Both the position numbers and the translations under genes were made by a program. A model generated the notes under the pieces. That model had not been told where the DNA came from and made no database searches. It saw nothing but the letters and a program-made list of their open reading frames with translations. DNA of 63,531 nt, the filler included, from Aduncisulcus paluster (Eukaryota), in the NCBI GenBank assembly GCA_024181965.1. It is 9 parts of 9 records of this genome, joined end to end, with 100 filler letters (N's around TTAATTAATTAA, not from the genome) between each part and the next. Parts side by side here need not be neighbours in the genome. Positions count along the whole stretch, not along the records: positions 57,873 to 60,830 come from BQXS01009745.1; 8 more parts are not named here. One strand, written 5' to 3'. Of this stretch, positions 1-63,531 are shown piece by piece. Numbering within the stretch: the first letter of the stretch is position 1; each line of letters begins with the position of its first letter.

Positions 1-707
1 TTATTAAATCGCCGAAATTGACCGTTTAATGTTTTATGGTTGTCCCTAAATGGAAGCGTGATGCATCGTTTATAATGATTAATGTGATAAAACTTGTACT
101 CGTAGTTTCCAGGGCTCGATAGAGGTGTTCCAAAGACGGATAGGTATGCTTTCTTCACATGGCATGCTGCATAAATAAATTTCTCGTCACTGAATCCGAA
201 TTGAGGTTGAATGTAGTCTTTGTATGTGGCTTTACAATACACAACGAGAGAATCCTGGATTGTATAATTCTGTGGTCTTAGTTCGACTGTCAGCTGATTC
301 CATTTCTTCAACGTTGATTTCACCAAGTGATATCAACAAGGCACTTTCAAAACAATGGTTATCGGCTCCGCTGGCAGAAACCATAAGCAAATCCAGCATG
401 TCGATGAATCCACTTTTTTCTACTATTTCGGGTGCTAGAGTTACGTGACTTCTCAGGGTATAACATTTCCGAGCGCCAATAAATTACTAAAGATTCATAA
501 AGTTGATATCAATCCAAACGGTGATCAAAAGAAAGGAAGAAAAAGTGAAAGTTAATAATCAATTTTTCTTGTTCATTCATGAAAGAATTAATCGTTAGAA
601 TAATATTAATCATTGTATTTACCTGACCATTTTATGGAATTTTATTTTCGTCTTTTTCGCCGGCGAAAACGATGAAAAATAGGAGTTTTGCTGTCACATA
701 AATAAAA

Positions 708-3441: not shown

Positions 3442-4393
3442 TAATAATAATAATTATAAATCGTATATTTCCACAACAAACCGAGAGAAAAACGCTTTTG
3501 GAACCTCGAGTGGAACACCCCAAATGGAATCCCCAAACAAAAATAATTCTAACTGTGTCATATATTCCACAGTTGAATAAACCGCCGCAATCAAACTATA
3601 ATAATATTCAAGCATGGAAAATGAATCCAATACTGGAGTCCAGATCCGGATTGAAAATCTTTCACATTATTCTCCAATACATATAAAAAATCACCCCGAT
3701 AGATTATAACGCCTACCAATTGTATGCACCAATATTAGATCAAAAATTGATTTCAACCTTATATGGCAAAGGAAACTGCAAGTCATCGTTTTCTTGGGAA
3801 TTTGGTTGCAATCTGTTTATTTAATTGGATAAATATCGCTTTAAATATCATCTAGATATGATTCTTTGTTTTTATGTTCTTTAATAACGTCTCCATTCAT
3901 GAATAGGATGTTTTGTCTCCTTATCACTTAATCTCAATTGAATATCATTTTTTCTGACGTAATTTTCAATGAAAGATTTGGAAATAACTTGAAAAATATC
4001 CTTCTTTACCCACCTTTTCTTCTATTTTCACTCTCTAACTGTATTTTTCAGTCTCTACGGATGAATGGTTTATTTCCAATTGTAGTATTGTTGTATATAT
4101 TATTGATGCCAAAATTAAAATTCCATTAAACCCTTTAATATTGAATATATTTATTCTTTCATGGATTAATACTCTATTCCCTTTCTCTCATTGATTGGAA
4201 ATAATAATTAATTTAAATTATTTCTATTATTCTTAAAGATGTAATTTAATTGACATATTTCAATCTCTACCTCCCTTTTCTCGATATTATTCCCCATTTC
4301 CGGCAATTGGAGATTGCTTGACTTTCATTTCCATTTCCCTTGCGTTTCACATCCAATCATCCATTCTTTCTTGCACATCTTCTTGATCTGCAA

Positions 4394-55004: not shown

Positions 55005-55194
55005 TGTTATATAAAATTATATAAAATAGTCCTTAAGGGCTATTACACTACTTTCTCCCACCTTTCCATATGTAAAAATAAGCGACGAAGGGAATCGAAC
55101 CCACGCAGCCAACATAGATAGTGGCACCCATGACCAATTGAGCTATAATGGTAATAATTTATAATTTTTGTTTTTTTATACGAATGGTATAACA
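55005..55194 (-). mobile_element. 3' LTR (190 bp) of an LTR retrotransposon whose interior runs off the contig end
   Basis: Termini TGTTATA...TATAACA (7-bp inverted repeat). On the minus strand it is preceded, 4 nt upstream, by a polypurine tract. Confidence 0.7.
55081..55152 (-). ncRNA. tRNA-like (pseudo-tRNA) Pol III unit inside the LTR
   Basis: A box TAGCTCAATTGG (T8=55145), B box GGTTCGATTCC (T54=55099), T5 run at 55078-55074; the acceptor stem does not pair. Confidence 0.7.
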
Positions 55195-55509: not shown

Positions 55510-57772
55510 CCTAAATATTTCCAATACAAGTGTGTCATCTCTTGTTGAAGCTGGAACTCTGTCAAACCTTGAGACGATCAAATTTCTTGATTGCCATGTT
55601 TCAGATCTCTCTCCATTGTACCATTTGTCGTCCCTCACATCTGTTCATGGAACTGGGAACAATATCTGTGTTGGTTCTGCAGAAACCATAGAAACGATCA
55701 AATTGAAGTTTGTCTCCCATGCCAGCCTTACGCTTGATCTTTGGACAACCTTAAGTACTGACCAAGCCTGTGAATGTTCCTCTGCTGACCTTGGAACGAC
55801 CCCTATCGCTGACAATCTTATATGCAGTGAAACGAAGCATTGGTCTAACACATGGTATGTTGTGTGTGCCAGTGATTCATTCACGTCATACACGTCTGCT
55901 GAGGACTTTACTTGTATCTCCCCTGCTAATGGGGATGGTACGTTTGGATGTACTGGAGGTTGTGAGTATGGTTATGAGTGTAGATATGATTCAACTTCAA
56001 ATTCAACATCGTGTCAGCAAGTAATAGTTGATGATATCCTGCACGATGTTATCTATAGTCTGTTTGGAGGATCCGACTTACATTGTGATACAACAGATCA
56101 AACATTCAGTGTTGCTTCCTTGAAAACTCTCATATCTGTAGAAGATGAAGATGGAAATGTCAGTCCAGAAATCAATACTAATTATCTTGAAGATTTAGTG
56201 AGTAATTTTTCTGGTATTGAACATGTTGGATTCATTACAAAAATGCAATTTTATAATCTTGATATCTCTGAAACGAAAGATCTTGAACCCCTATCAACAC
56301 TTTCTAATCTCAATTATCTCTTTCTGTATGACAGCATTCTTGCTGATTTGGTGGACCCGTTTGATTTGCCTGATTTCACAGGTCTTTCTTCCCTTGAAAC
56401 ATTATTTCTCCAAAATATGCCCTTAACTCTTCCTTCAGATCGGTATGTTCTTCCTTCTACAATTAAAGAATTGGGAATATATAATTCACCTACCGTTCAA
56501 GCTGGTTTTGATAAGAATGTTGGTTACGATTACTTGTCATCCCTTGAATATTTACAATTTGGAGGTGAGAATAATTTGATTACTTCCATTGAATCGTTAT
56601 CAGAGAATCAACTGTCCACTATCATCGGTTTTTACTTCGATGATTATCCCATTTATGATGGGTTTAATGATGTTATTTCTGAAATGACAAGTTTGATAAA
56701 TGTTCGTTTGGCTAATTGCAATCTGCTGACTATTCCTGATCTTTCAAATAGTGCTACTACTTTGACGTACCTTTCCATTTACTCCAATCCCGATATTACT
56801 TCCTTGGTTTCCTTAGCTGAAATGGGATTGTATTCGCTCCAAACTATAATTCTTTTCAGTTGTTCTATCTCTGATATATCCCCATTATATGACTTTCCTA
56901 GTCTTTCAGGTATTTCAATTATCAATAATAAGATCTGTTCTGGAACAAATTCAAGCTCAGATTTAATTGCCAAATTCACACAATCTTCTGTTAGGATTTT
57001 CACAGGATCACAGACCTGCGAATGTTCCTCTGATAGCACTGCAATTGGATACACCGATACCCCGATCACTGACAATATCGTGTGTAGTGAGACTGTACCT
57101 GGATCTGGTTCATGGCATTATGTGTGTTCCAGCCATAGTATTGCATCATACACATCTGTGGATACCTTCGAGTGTCTAGCTCCACTCAACACAGATGGTG
57201 AAACATATGGATGTTCTGGAGGGTGTGAGTATGGATATGAATGTAGATATGTTGATGAATTAACTCAATCCGCCTCTTCATGCTATCCTGTGATCGTCGA
57301 TGAGAACTTACATGCATATGTTGCTGATATGTTTGTGGATTCTGATGGAAATCCTGATTACACTCACAGAACAGATTCCACGCCTTCCCTTTTCAGTGTT
57401 GCTTCATTGAGAACCATTTCCTCCTCAACTCTGTCGAACGATGGTATTTCCCTTTCCAACTCTGATAGGTTTTCCTTGCTCGATGGAATTGAACATATTC
57501 GCTCTCTTACATCCATTTCGTTGCCATATCACAACTTTGTGAGTGCTAATCCATTGGGTTCTCTACATGGTCTTGAGTCCCTTTCCCTTGCCCATAACAT
57601 GTATGGTGCTCCTGAGGATGCTGGTGGGAATGCCATTGAAGGCTTTTCTGATCTGTCGTTCATCTGCTCCCTTCACTCACTCTCCACTCTGACCCTCTCT
57701 TCTGTCACTTCTGTGTCTGCTCTTCCCGACACTTCCGAGTGTGCTGATACGTACACCTCCTTGAGCTCTCTC
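55510..57772 (+). CDS. LRR surface protein with repeated Cys-rich modules, internal fragment
   Basis: LRRs (SDLSPLY.L.SL) alternate with two copies of a module C.CSS...DN..CSET...W..VC...GC.GGCEYGYECRY; open at both contig ends. Confidence 0.85.
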
Positions 57773-57872
57773 NNNNNNNNNNNNNNNNNNNNNNNNNNNN
57801 NNNNNNNNNNNNNNNNTTAATTAATTAANNNNNNNNNNNNNNNNNNNNNNNNNNNNNNNNNNNNNNNNNNNN

Positions 57873-58249
57873 CGTTGAATTTCGACATTTAGTATTTTGC
57901 AAATTGCATTAATTGAAATAAAGTTCTTTGCTGCAAGTTTTGCAATTTCCTTTCTAAACTCTCTTTTTTCGGCGGTTTCTTTGGAAGAACTAGTGCTGAT
58001 ACTTTCATGATGTGATTTTGATGTGATATGAGATACTATTGATCTGAAAGACGCATTTATAGATTTTTCGCATCTAATGCAATAGATTTTGTGATCAGAT
58101 TGTGTTATAAAATGTGACGTTATGTCGGATATGCCCATTTCAATTATCTTCTCTTTTGAAGTTTTCTCCTTACCGCAAAGCAATTTATATTTTCTCCAAA
58201 CCTTCATGCCTTCTCTATCAGTGCTATTGAAGACACGAGAATAATCCAT
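57873..58249 (-). mobile_element. Putative DNA transposase N-terminus (BED/CGGBP1-like zinc finger), truncated
   Basis: IYCIRCEKSIN...IVSHITSKSH followed by EFRKEIAKLAAKNFISINAI, an arrangement like hAT-related transposases; the catalytic domain is not in the window. Confidence 0.5.
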
Positions 58250-59015
58250 TTGTTTTCAAAAAAACAAATTTCAGAAGTGTCATGTGAGTCACAAAATTTT
58301 GTTTCAATTGTGAATGAATATATAGTCAAAACATAATTATTCGTTATAAATTTATTAATCCTATGACTGCTCTATTGATAACATGTATTAATGGGATAAT
58401 TCAAACGGATCAAAAAACATGGAAACACCTTGCAGTGAAGTATAACACCAGGCAGGGGGAAAACAGATAGTGTTAAGAAGTTCCAAACCCGAGTTCAACT
58501 TGAACTGGACTTGAAGTCCCGATGGGGGAACGTATCCAGGTGAGGTCGTCGCTAGAAGCGCTTGGCTTAGAAGGGCATATGATAAATGAGTTAAGACATT
58601 TATCGTAAGAGACTCTTACTAAGTTGTTTAGTACTAGGAGTGTAAGAAAGAAAATATATCAATGATAGATAACGATGGACAGATGTTGTTCGGTTTGATC
58701 AAGACTGCAGTCTTAGACTGACTTTACTTTAAAGACACAAATATAGGAAACCACAAATCATTACCAGAAAATGTTGGAGGGGACCATTAACAACCAAGAG
58801 AAAGGTTTGCCAAACAAAAAGAAACAAATAGAAACGAATTACACAAAATGGCAGACAAATTATCAATTAGCTCAGAGAGCAACAAAAACATCCAAATAAA
58901 AACACCTGTTCCCACATAATCATCGGGAATGTAAGGAAAGTCACACTAAAAATGGGAATACTAACATCATATGAATAGCAATAACATTGCAGATAATGTA
59001 GAACTGTTAACTTGG

Positions 59016-59197
59016 TGTTATGGCCCAAAGATATTATTTTGTACGATTAGCTTGTTATAGTCTAATCGTTAAGGCGTCACCTTGGTGATTGCCTGGTTGT
59101 GGGTTCAAACCCCACCTTGTGTAATTTTATGAAAGTCTGTAAGGAAGACTACAGCCTTGTCATAAGAATGACGTGACAAGTATTGAAGAGAGTAACA
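59016..59197 (+). mobile_element. Putative 5' LTR (182 bp) of the Ty3/gypsy element
   Basis: TGTTA...TAACA termini, ending 76 nt before the gag ATG; size and layout match the LTR at 55005-55194. The partner LTR is not in the window. Confidence 0.6.
59051..59122 (+). ncRNA. tRNA-like (pseudo-tRNA) Pol III unit inside the putative LTR
   Basis: D arm GTCT/AGGC (T8=59058), perfect T arm GTGGG-TTCAAAC-CCCAC (T54=59104), T4 at 59125-59128; no acceptor stem or canonical anticodon arm. Confidence 0.7.
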
Positions 59198-59273
59198 TAT
59201 TATAGTAAATTGTGCTCACCACAAGAATTTTATTTTCCAGGAATATTACAAAATAGCTATTTTAGTTTTATTT

Positions 59274-60830
59274 ATGGAAGTTAAGGTTGTTTTACCAAGA
59301 TTAGCCACCGTGGGACGGGAGGCTTGGAAAAAATTTAAGGAACAATTCCTCAGTTATCAAAAACGAGATGAAGATGCTGAAATAAGGACGTATATGACTG
59401 ATACAGTCTGGACGATCTATCAGGCTCGGACAGGTTTGGCAGATGGAGAGGATTCCGATGTCATTCTTGAGGAAATTGATAAATTATACGGCATTACGAA
59501 CAGATTGACTTGTGTATATGCCTTGGAAGAATTTAAACTGAAAGGAATTACCGAAAAGGAGATCTCTGAGTATGTAATTAACTACCAGCGAGTGATTCGC
59601 TCGGTTACTACGTCTGTGGAGCGCCCTAAGGACGAACAAATTCAGAAATTATTTTTAAAAGGAATTATTAATCCTCGTTTCCGGACTAGAGTCGCGACAG
59701 GATTATCGACTGTTACAGAACCCGAGTTCACCGATGTTATTCGTATTGTGTTCGAGGAAGGTTTGACGGTTGAAGAAGATATCCAGGATATGGCTGGTTA
59801 TGTTACTTCAACTGGAACTACGAAACGTAAGAAAAAATGTCCTGTTTGCGGGAAGATCGGACATGACGAGAGAGATTGTTGGATAAAACACCCTGAGTTG
59901 AAGAAGAAAAAACGCTCTAAAGGTTCAACGGCACCTCGAAGACCGAAGAAACCTCTGTCTGAAATACAATGTTATAAGTGCAGAGAAATGGGCCATTATG
60001 CGAATAATTGTCCAAATGAGAAAAAAGATAGAGAAGAAGGCTCTATTAAAGCACTGGTGGGTGATGGATTACCCACGTATGAGATTATGATCTTTAATGG
60101 AAAAGATCCAAAGAAGACGGTGAAAGCATTGATTGATTCTGGATCGAGCCATTCAGTAATCAGTGAGGAAGTGTTAAGCAGTATGGGAACGGAACTCCAG
60201 CTATTACCTTGTGATGTACTGTTTCATCTGGCTACTGGTGAACCTATTCGTTCAAAAATGCGTGCCAGGATGACAGTCAGGATAAAAGGAGCCATGGGAA
60301 AGTTTTTGCGTTTTACTACCTGGTTCTATGGGATTCCGATGACTAAAGCTGCCACTCCTGTATTACTTGGCCGAGACTTTATTGAAGAAACAGATTGGAA
60401 TCACCTTGCTATTAGAGATCCCGTTGGTTCAACAGTTATTAAAGATGTAGCAGAAGATGGTCTGTTTGAAGACGAAATTAAAAGAGAGGAGGATTCATTG
60501 GTGGAAGGAATTGATAACGAAGAAATAAGAAAGCTTTTGGAGGAGTATGAGGTAGCCATTAAAGATGTAGAATTGTGTCGAGCTCGTCCGTTTAGGATTG
60601 AGTTGAAGGAAAAAGATGTAGTTATTTCCGATGTACCTCGTCGCTTATCACCTAAACGACGTGAAATCTTAGAACAATTACTACAGGAATTATTGGACAA
60701 GAAGTTTATTCGAAGATCAAAATCTCCCTACGCATCTCCAATTGTTTTGGTTCCAAAGAAAAATGGATCGTTTCGACTATGTGTCGACTATCGTGTATTG
60801 AACGAACATATTGTTCCTATTCGTTACCCA
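59274..60830 (+). CDS. Ty3/gypsy retrotransposon Gag-Pol (gag, two CCHC knuckles, aspartic protease, start of RT), truncated
   Basis: CPVCGKIGHDERDC, CYKCREMGHYANNC, LIDSGS, LLGRDF and SPYASPIVLVPKKNGSFRLCVDYRVLN, all in one frame. Confidence 0.95.
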
Positions 60831-60930
60831 NNNNNNNNNNNNNNNNNNNNNNNNNNNNNNNNNNNNNNNNNNNNTTAATTAATTAANNNNNNNNNNNNNN
60901 NNNNNNNNNNNNNNNNNNNNNNNNNNNNNN

Positions 60931-63531
60931 CAATACAATCAGAATGCACAGAAGCAGCATCCATTCCTTCATCAACAACACATTGAGTTGTGGGGTAGTC
61001 AACAAGTGTATCGACACACGATGGGATAGAAGAGGCGGATTGTGAAGCATCGAGGGAGACACATGTCGGTGGAGCAGACGAAGACGAAGACGAAGACGAA
61101 GACGAAGAAGAGGAGGAGGAGGAGTTATAATCACGATAACTGAACAGGGCACACTCGACCTGATACTCATCACTCCACACTTCACGACACACAACATTGT
61201 CCGAGGGCGTCATGGAAGACAGAGCATCGGAACAGTGTGCACAATACGATGAATCTTGAGCAATCAAAGAATCACTGCTACCCACATTCACGGAGAGAGC
61301 TGGCGAAAGAGGGAACAGTGCAGCATACACAGTGTCGGACACATTGCACAGCTTGTTCTCACGCACGTCAAGCGAAGACAGACCAGAGATCGGGAACAAG
61401 AGCGAGATGTCCGTGAGACCATTCGAACGGATGGACAGGGTGGACAATGCAGGGAACATGCTGAGAGAACGCAAGGAAGTGTCACATAATCCAACAGAAT
61501 CCAGGATCAATGTCGTCAGAGAGGGCAGGGAGGACAATGTTGTCAGGGAGGAAGATAGTGTTGTGGATAAGGGGTTGCTGCTGAGGTTGAGCTCTGTTAA
61601 TGCATTCATGGAGGAGAGGGCAGAAATGTCTGAGATGTTGATAGTATCAAGATAGAGATTTGTCATTTTTGTCAATCCTGCAAGTGGGGAAATATCAGAA
61701 ATGCCGATGTTATATCCAAGGTTGAGATAGGATAATGATGTCAGAGAGTTCAAGGAAGAGATATCAGAGATATTATTATTATGAAGATATAAATTTGCTA
61801 ATTTCGACATCCCTGAGAGGAATGAAATATCTGAGAGAGTGTTTGAATTTAAATCTAAAGTAAGCAGCTCAAGTTTCTCAGAAAGAACAGAAATGTCTGA
61901 GATATTGTTTGTACCAAGGTACAAAATCGACAGCTTTGACATTCCAGATAGAGCAGAGATATCAGAAATAGCGTTTGATTGTAATCTAAGGTCAGTGAGA
62001 TTAGTGATGTTGACAAGAGGTGAAACATCTGAAATATTGTTTGAATAAAGATGGAGAGTCGTTAAATTTATCATTCCAGATAGAGCAGAGATATCCGAGA
62101 TGTTATTTTCATAGAGATACAGATATACTAATTCATCCATGTTTGACAAAGAATCAATGGAAATAATCTGATTATATCCAAGGTGTAAATATGTCAATTT
62201 CACCAAACTTTCCAATGAGCTCACATCAGATATTTGATTGTTGTACAAATGCAAATTGGTTAGATTCAACAATCCAGATAAATCCGAAATGTCAGATATT
62301 TGATTTGAATAAAGGTATAGAATATTCATATCATTCATTCCAGAGAGGGCAGAGATATCTGAGATATTGTTGTTGTAGAGATACAAATACTGTAAACTTA
62401 TCATGTTTATCAAAGAATCAATTGAAGCAATTTCATTGTATGCAAGATGCAAATATGTTAGCTTTGTTAGAGAATTCAAATAGGAGATATCTGATATGTT
62501 GTTCACCTGGAGTTCTAATCTCACCAATTCTTCCATTCCAGATAGAGCAGAGATATCCGAGATGTTATTGTAATGGATATACAACTCTGTCAATTGGAGT
62601 ATATTTGAGAGAGATGAAATCGATGATATTTGGTTATGTCCAAGATGAAGATATGTGAGATTGGAGATGTTGACAAGAGGTGAAACATCTGAGATACTGT
62701 TTGAATAAAGATATAGAGTCGTTAAGTTTATCATTCCNNNNNNNNNNNNNNNNNNNNCAAATAGGAGATATCTGATATGTTGTTCACCTGGAGTTCTAAT
62801 CTCACCAATTCTTCCATTCCAGATAGAGCAGAGATATCCGAGATGTTATTGTAATGGATATACAACTCTGTCAATTGGAGTATATTTGAGAGAGATGAAA
62901 TCGATGATATTTGGTTATGTCCAAGATGAAGATATGTGAGATTGGAGATGTTGACAAGAGGTGAAACATCTGAGATACTGTTTGAATAAAGATATAGAGT
63001 CGTTAAGTTTATCATTCCTGATAGAGCAGAGATATCCGAGATGTTATTTTCATAGAGATACAGATATACTAATTCATCCATGTTTGACAAAGAATCAATG
63101 GAAATAATCTGATTATATCCAAGGTGTAAATATGTCAATTTCACCAAACTTTCCAATGAGCTCACATCAGATATTTGATTGTTGTACAAATGCAAATTGG
63201 TTAGATTCAACAATCCAGATAAATCCGAAATGTCAGATATTTGATTTGAATAAAGGTATAGAATATTCATATCATTCATTCCAGAGAGGGCAGAGATATC
63301 TGAGATATTGTTGTTGTAGAGATACAAATACTGTAAACTTATCATGTTTATCAAAGAATCAATTGAAGCAATTTCATTGTATGCAAGATGCAAATATGTT
63401 AGCTTTGTTAGAGAATTCAAATAGGAGATATCTGATATGTTGTTCACCTGGAGTTCTAATCTCACCAATTCTTCCATTCCAGATAGAGCAGAGATATCCG
63501 AGATGTTATTGTAATGGATATACAACTCTGT
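60931..63531 (-). CDS. Internalin-like 22-aa LRR protein with a Cys-rich C-terminal cap, internal fragment
   Basis: Long run of LxxLxLxxNxISDISxL repeats; ORFs join through the duplicate 62477-62737/62758-63018. Confidence 0.92.

Follow-up and report, generated by a model that had tools for sequence, protein, structure and literature searches.

A degenerate tRNA-like block lies within the repeated 5′ terminal unit, a probable long terminal repeat, of a protein-coding Ty3/gypsy element of Aduncisulcus paluster

The stretch of DNA analyzed here (63,531 bases from Aduncisulcus paluster, 39.3% GC, hereafter the window) carries the 5′ part of a coding Ty3/gypsy retrotransposon, in which a repeated terminal unit, probably a long terminal repeat (LTR), encloses a degenerate tRNA-like block and is followed by an open frame for gag, protease and the start of reverse transcriptase (RT). 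Rather than being one piece of chromosome, the window strings together 16 short contigs; the draft assembly of A. paluster is itself highly fragmented (N50 4.6 kb, 39.1% GC; PMC9933649). Some of the joints between contigs are gaps of 20 N, others are linkers of 44 N + TTAATTAATTAA + 44 N (for example at 57773–57872 and 60831–60930), and because the contigs were joined artificially, gene order and adjacency across the linkers are artificial as well. The element sits on a stand-alone contig (57873–60830, 2958 bp), such that the neighboring contigs are uninformative about it; as this contig stops inside RT at position 60830, the integrase and the 3′ LTR are out of view. We aligned to it the contigs of two public runs (X1 and X2) of one sample, bearing in mind that contig depth is not copy number (a warning given by the alignment tool itself) and that the 30-letter consensus sequences of loose ends were compared with the window by eye only.

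The coding part is of the Ty3/gypsy type, as a sequence-only reading of this locus had proposed, with CCHC knuckles and a protease site in the window and RVT_1 and RNase H domains in a sister copy. The window protein is identical to a database protein (P0083) encoded on a contig of 2958 bp, the length of the element contig, and the sister copy (P0103, 782 residues, on a 14.4-kb contig, labeled by NCBI as [quoted passage not shown]) agrees with it at 514 of 519 residues (99%). The same reading had described an uninterrupted gag–protease–RT frame; the frame is indeed open from 59274 to 60830, but only about 27 RT residues fall within the window. P0103 continues in frame through RVT_1 (residues 493–652) and into RNase H (RT_RNaseH_2, from residue 716). 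A paralogue under the same species label (P0104), 75% identical to residues 500–782 of P0103, reaches the integrase zinc domain and is the only protein in which integrase was seen; from these domains, the element is likely to be complete. Long relatives that carry RVT_1, RT_RNaseH and rve are 24–30% identical to the window protein (82 proteins at E ≤ 0.001 among 7993 candidates scored), none of them a close full-length relative; when proteins of similar length were compared, the window's own was the sole close one, followed by a next best at 27% identity. A search of viral contigs gave 12 pattern matches, none of which was confirmed as a relative, and the four loci found in metagenome contigs (L001–L004) and the one in prokaryote genome contigs (L005) are distant, partial gag or knuckle matches (28–69% identity over 26–162 residues).

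Upstream of this frame lies the 182-bp TGTTA…TAACA unit that the sequence-only reading had taken to be the LTR, placed 76 nt before the ATG (59274). By direct reading, TGTTA occupies 59016–59020 and TAACA 59193–59197, so that both the unit and the gap are as described; the 3′ limit is probably wrong, since 59197 rests on two 5-mers and the contig data favor 59250. The 5′ limit is marked by a step in depth: an X1 contig over the upstream flank (58404–59044) has a depth of 1342, equal to that of a single diverged paralogue contig (1345), and between 59044 and 59046 the depth rises to 5596, about four times that of the flank. The X1 contig at this higher depth (59046–59192, 147 nt) shows no difference from the window and contains the entire tRNA-like block. 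Internal X1 contigs identical to the window have depths of 3559–4235, giving proportions for flank, unit and coding part of approximately 1 : 4 : 3; the excess of unit over coding part indicates that the unit is the commoner of the two, as LTRs are. In X2, a record of 670 nt (record 12) carries 59016–59240 with two differences, behind 445 nt unlike the window. Because the block here stands behind a different upstream sequence, it travels with the element; by this record and by the step in depth (1342 versus 5596), the block lies, as far as these contigs extend, inside the repeated unit and not beside it in host DNA, the position that the sequence-only reading had named as fatal to its proposal.

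The repeated unit thus starts at 59016 (± 2 bases), takes in the tRNA-like block and is found in one or more other contexts. The upstream sequence in record 12 closes with eight letters that are the same as window positions 59014–59021, for which reason either the exact first base of the unit is uncertain or the X2 copy has a 6-nt duplication. At the other end, two X1 records follow the window as far as 59250, where they diverge into non-window sequences that are mostly unlike one another (agreement 0.67); seven X1 records fit only in part, and not one of these breaks off after 59197. As breaks after 59250 are what the outer edge of a 3′ LTR or of a solo LTR would give, 59016–59250 is a better candidate than the 182-bp unit, and the LTR probably ends at 59250. 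Within this stretch, we note the string AGTAAA at 59205–59210 (plus strand), which precedes by 30 nt the end (59240) of the X2 contig that covers the unit; that X2 is an RNA run is no more than a guess, and the X2 contigs leave 59241–59373 uncovered. The string resembles the AGTRAA poly-A signal of Giardia and, if X2 is RNA, could mark the R/U5 border.

The tRNA-like block itself begins about 42 nt into the repeat. The sequence-only reading had listed a D arm with A box, a perfect T arm with B box, a canonical T8–T54 distance of 46 nt, a TTTT run and the lack of an acceptor stem. All of these can be read directly, with a reservation over the A box: the string TAGTCTAATCG is present, but it reads TAGTC, without the C of TRGCY and without GG, and is weak. 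The T arm (GTGGG/TTCAAAC/CCCAC, 59099–59115) has a perfect 5-bp stem. The 46 nt between T8 (59058) and T54 (59104) come about because a longer variable region makes up for the absent anticodon loop. The 7-mers at the acceptor positions (CTTGTTA at 59051–59057 and CTTGTGT at 59116–59122) are near-direct repeats rather than complements, and hence form no acceptor stem. The Rfam tRNA model (RF00005) aligns 59058–59115 with its positions 8–63, recovering the D arm and a 5-bp anticodon stem closed by two bases with no anticodon loop, at a score of 22.5 bits (E = 0.069 in a 1.2-kb search). The D loop may resemble that of class II tRNAs. In the predicted fold of the unit, a 9-bp hairpin (GGCGTCAC–CTTG–GTGATTGCC, 59073–59095, plus strand) comprises the remnant of the anticodon stem and neighboring bases. 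The block is not a tRNA gene, given its missing acceptor stem and anticodon loop and a score below detector thresholds: ARAGORN at default settings found no tRNA gene in the window, and relaxed settings (introns allowed, or thresholds of 80–90%) returned only absurd introns or a two-base anticodon, which we rejected. The coordinates of the features are collected in Table 1.

Table 1. Features of the element contig and of a second tRNA-like unit, in window coordinates or codons of the frame
Feature	Position	Strand	Remarks
Host flank	58434–59015		single-copy by depth; upstream of element
Repeated 5′ terminal unit, probable 5′ LTR	59016–59250	+	235 bp, TGT…ACA; from X1 and X2 contigs
Alternative 3′ end of terminal unit	59197	+	TGTTA…TAACA, 182 bp; two 5-mers only
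Degenerate tRNA-like core	59058–59115	+	D arm, loopless anticodon stem, long variable stretch, perfect T arm
A-box-like string, weak	59058–59068	+	TAGTCTAATCG; direct reading
B box, good	59102–59112	+	GGTTCAAACCC; match to GGTTCRANNCC
T4 run, possible RNA polymerase III stop	59125–59128	+	10 nt past T arm
Leader, probable LTR end to ATG	59251–59273	+	primer-binding site expected here or from 59198; none recognized
gag–protease–RT open frame	59274–60830	+	519 codons, cut by contig end
CCHC knuckles	codons 189–202, 233–246	+	Pfam zf-CCHC, 27.5 bits, above cut-off
DSG aspartic protease site	codons 288–290	+	Pfam Asp_protease_2, 30.5 bits, above cut-off
RT start	about codon 493	+	only about the first 27 RT residues in window
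Second tRNA-like unit, on another contig	55005–55194	−	190 bp; TGTTAT, 49 nt, TAGCTCAATTGG, GGTTCGATTCC, T5, TAACA

The tRNA likeness of the block is real but below threshold, and we hold with good confidence that the block is truly derived from a tRNA. The other way of reading it, that an ordinary short LTR or 5′ end happens to contain the hairpin GGTTCAAACC and a TAGT at tRNA spacing, seems to us quite unlikely. It would account for the missing acceptor stem and anticodon loop, for the silence of ARAGORN even at relaxed thresholds and for an Rfam score below the gathering score, with a library-wide E of 3.7 in one window of 63.5 kb; moreover, the finding came out of a very extensive scan, in which rare chance matches are expected. 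Set against this, the D arm, 5-bp anticodon stem and perfect T arm stand in the right order, and the tRNA model taken alone would be expected to match at this level only about 0.001 times window-wide (approximately 3.7/4227, by arithmetic over the 4227 families). The paired motif TAGT-N(28–40)-GGTTCRANNCC occurs once in the window against an expectation of 0.03, and in 3 of 100 shuffles; GGTTCRANNCC on its own (the textbook B-box consensus) occurs twice against 0.64 expected, a count of at least two being reached in 14 of 100 shuffles. Pieces of tRNA in LTRs are also documented (Kojima 2024, PMC10886601).

We weigh a composite in which a captured, decayed piece of tRNA rides in the LTR of a coding Ty3/gypsy element; to this composite as a whole we give an even chance, and that the unit is an LTR we consider probable. 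Several observations speak against it. With respect to the block, the tRNA match falls short of the Rfam gathering score (29 bits), and in the search of the whole window with the whole library its E of 3.7 places it among similar-scoring junk matches, as one of 21 with E ≤ 10 and the only one to a tRNA family. With respect to the unit, the ratio of unit to coding depth is approximately 1.3–1.6 and not 2, and the X1 depth in the leader (8643 at 59266) exceeds that of the unit, contrary to what a simple LTR model would lead one to expect. The match to the window begins or breaks off at 59230, 59245 and 59296 in three records, making the region a mosaic of subfamilies: the record that matches only from 59230 is preceded by unlike sequence, and those at 59245 and 59296 are diverged relatives. 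A second copy of the unit downstream of integrase is not seen, the contig ending in RT, and a blastn search of the window for another copy of 58500–60830 gave the self match and three short chance matches only. There is no TGG in 59198–59273, so that neither candidate LTR end is followed within 76 nt by a TGG-type primer-binding site (PBS), and no polypurine tract (PPT) is visible. Finally, the copies are nearly identical, too alike to show any conservation of the boxes. Several subfamilies, or derivatives that share the end of the element, seem to exist.

Some of these observations would be explained if the unit were not an LTR, either because it is a tRNA-derived repeat resembling a short interspersed element (SINE), or the solo LTR of another family, lying upstream of a 5′-truncated or rearranged gag–pol, or because it is the unrepeated 5′ leader of the element. 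The absence of a PBS between unit and ATG, a depth ratio below 2, the several break points at 59230–59296 and the presence of a similar unit alone at 55194–55005, with no gag–pol adjoining, all fit such an arrangement. We nonetheless consider it unlikely: record 12 of X2 joins the unit to the same leader, up to 59240, in another genomic context, and P0103 starts with the same methionine and shares its first 519 residues (514 identical) with the window protein, so that the frame is equally whole at its 5′ end in both copies. There is furthermore no poly-A tail, nor one of the type found in long interspersed elements (LINEs), past the T run; Ty3/gypsy elements need LTRs, and the 5′ end of the element has no repeated sequence other than this unit.

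With regard to priming, we considered whether the tRNA-like RNA might act as its own primer or whether the element might prime itself in the manner of Tf1, and rejected both; the RNAduplex energies obtained were reached by 281, 115 and 184 of 300 shuffles. Complementarity of the leader to the LTR or to the tRNA-like block was not above that of shuffles, and the longest exact complement between leader and unit (9 nt, AT-rich, 59247–59255 with 59035–59043) we judged to be chance.

If the unit is indeed an LTR, the composite can be worded as a sequence of events. The stretch from 59016 to approximately 59250 would be the 5′ LTR of a young, low-copy Ty3/gypsy retrotransposon of a fornicate flagellate, and some 42 nt into the repeat there would lie a 58–72-nt relic of a tRNA or tRNA-derived SINE. 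This relic may have been captured once, by insertion into the LTR or by a template switch of RT onto a packaged tRNA, and would since have been copied along with the element. The sense orientation of the block and the CTTGT repeats that flank it fit either insertion of a SINE or tRNA into the LTR or template switching. Read-through copying of a primer tRNA leaves antisense tRNA sequence behind U5, and we rejected it as the origin since the block is sense-oriented and near the 5′ end of the unit. Likewise rejected was a host tRNA gene serving as integration target (in the style of Ty3 or DGLT-A), the block being inside the repeated unit and not a tRNA gene. For Helenus, Kojima proposed an origin by insertion of a SINE into an LTR, and the same source describes “not a few” LTRs in Repbase as holding a piece of a tRNA, naming in the part cited here only TRIMs (terminal-repeat retrotransposons in miniature; PMC10886601).

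As to what the block could do, it cannot make a tRNA, because it has neither acceptor stem nor anticodon loop. A coding RNA of several kilobases would need RNA polymerase II (Pol II), because the coding strand of 59016–60830 holds 12 runs of at least four Ts, the first past the block at 59125. With its B box near consensus, the block could still bind TFIIIC and give rise, through RNA polymerase III (Pol III), to a short transcript of some 80 nt that stops at the T4 run. On this account, the block would be a passenger in what we presume to be U3, with at most a modulating role.

A more active part would follow if selection maintained the block as a functional Pol III module in the LTRs of a Ty3/gypsy lineage with coding capacity, with TFIIIC recruited via the B box and the outcome either a short tRNA-like transcript, approximately 80 nt long, or a boundary that shields the Pol II promoter; non-coding derivatives of the element would then be TRIMs of the Helenus type. 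We regard this as quite unlikely. The near-consensus B box, the canonical T8–T54 spacing and the T4 run 10 nt past the T arm are what such a module would have, but its A box is poor (TAGTC, no GG). The 147-nt contig with the block is free of variants among about four copies, yet the copies are too alike for this to count, as about 1.2 variants would be expected in 147 nt at the gag rate (counted by hand) against the zero seen. The leader depth (8643, compared with about 5000 in gag) would allow for non-coding derivatives with the same end as the element.

The remaining argument for a functional module comes from the second tRNA-like unit (55194–55005, minus strand), which has the same order of parts although the rest of the unit does not align. 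It combines a textbook A box (TAGCTCAATTGG) and a consensus B box (GGTTCGATTCC, 55091–55101, minus strand, the only other match to GGTTCRANNCC in the window) at a T8–T54 distance of 46 nt with a T5 run and a TAACA 190 bp from the start; as in the element, there is no acceptor stem. It stands alone, with no gag–pol adjoining. The shared order of parts suggests a related family with conserved boxes, a case that is weak: the shared motifs were chosen after both units had been seen, BLASTN finds no link between the second unit and 59016–59273, and neither Rfam (E ≤ 10) nor ARAGORN reports the second unit. The gapless identity of the two cores is 39/78, while an unrelated T-rich segment reaches 40/78; segments at 39/78 or above number 3 of 122,716, the second unit itself included. 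As a solo LTR the second unit was rejected, there being by eye no target-site duplication of 4 or 5 bp at TGTTA/TAACA or at other CA ends, and this absence tells against the functional module as well. No third member was found in the window with an nhmmer profile built from the two sequences (next best E 10–17). The second unit may be a solo relative of the end of the element, or an unrelated tRNA pseudogene or SINE. In its fullest form, the proposal has each LTR of an autonomous coding Ty3/gypsy lineage, hosted by a free-living fornicate, retain a working TFIIIC/Pol III module, with the boxes, spacing and T run conserved between the diverged families at 59016–59250 and 55194–55005 while the rest drifted; this strikes us as very improbable.

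Returning to the favored composite, a captured tRNA piece in the LTR of a coding element, we compared its anatomy with that of known systems. The sequence-only reading had interchanged the names of two TRIMs, of which Helenus derives from a tRNA and Ajax from 5S (PMC10886601). Helenus (TRIMp3), the nearest of the described systems, shares with the present element a short LTR with a sense, non-functional tRNA-like sequence and a conserved GGTTC B box, and in both the tRNA-like part is not complementary to the region of priming (the PBS in Helenus, the leader here; PMC10886601). Helenus LTRs measure 120 to about 320 bp in elements of 311–1263 bp that are non-coding (PMC10886601), in contrast to the gag–pol frame of at least 782 codons (from the sister copy) that starts here 24–76 nt behind the unit. 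The B box fits that of Helenus and the A box does so only in part, lacking the “TRGCY … YGG” form of most Helenus LTRs (PMC10886601); furthermore, of two LTRs, a PBS and a PPT, only the 5′ unit is seen here. We liken the element to Helenus in LTR anatomy only; the unit is probably a Helenus-like LTR on a coding element. In Kojima's view, the autonomous partners of Helenus “must use” Pol II, and it is unlikely that they have LTR sequence in common with TRIMp3 (PMC10886601). Cassandra and Ajax follow the same principle, in that a fragment of a small-RNA gene with an internal Pol III promoter lies inside the LTR, but theirs is derived from 5S, with a type 1 promoter, and both are non-autonomous (PMC10886601).

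The block also has in common with tRNA-derived SINEs (SINE2) a tRNA-related head with A and B boxes and a lost cloverleaf. It differs from them in having no LINE-derived body or A-rich tail, and in its placement, 42 nt inside a unit that starts with TGT and ahead of a gag–pol frame. Ty3 and the Dictyostelium element DGLT-A are said to integrate next to tRNA genes; there too a Ty3/gypsy element physically adjoins a Pol III promoter, but their tRNA gene is intact host DNA outside the LTR, whereas here a broken block lies inside the repeated unit. Among the matches listed in a literature search, none describes an LTR element that codes for protein and also bears a tRNA-like Pol III block within the LTR.

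Several further features of the window were observed. The flank of the element (58434–59015) contains no open reading frame (ORF) of 80 or more residues. The upstream part of the element contig (57873–58433) has a depth about three times that of the adjoining flank, and past 58433 both runs continue into non-window sequence, such that 57873–58433 is itself repeated or polymorphic; an ORF of 128 codons here (57872–58255, minus strand) shows a C-x2-C … H-x5-H motif by eye and has no Pfam match. On neighboring contigs there are long intron-free ORFs of leucine-rich repeats (NNISDIS… units) at 55511–57772 (plus strand, with a match to Pfam LRR_4), 60932–62737 (minus) and 62758–63531 (minus). The last two contigs of the window contain near-identical repeat blocks, with one reading of 141–163 residues at both 62167 and 63108.

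What the evidence supports is anatomy only, that is, one 5′ end, few near-identical copies and a below-threshold tRNA match. At this level, the element gives Fornicata, whose mobile elements have received very little study, a described family of LTR retrotransposons; a literature search on LTR elements in Fornicata gave no paper among the matches listed (best 10 of 31). LTRs built on fragments of small-RNA genes are known only from the miniature non-coding Cassandra, Helenus and Ajax, so that, if the LTR status of the unit holds, its layout is one so far described only for tiny non-coding elements. A coding element with such a block would then show one route to miniature elements, via loss of the coding part, and would make it possible to test, in a natural setting, if transcription by Pol II or silencing is affected by a TFIIIC site within an LTR. 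Were the block a working module, the element would be the missing autonomous counterpart, and progenitor type, of Helenus-like TRIMp3, with one end serving two polymerases.

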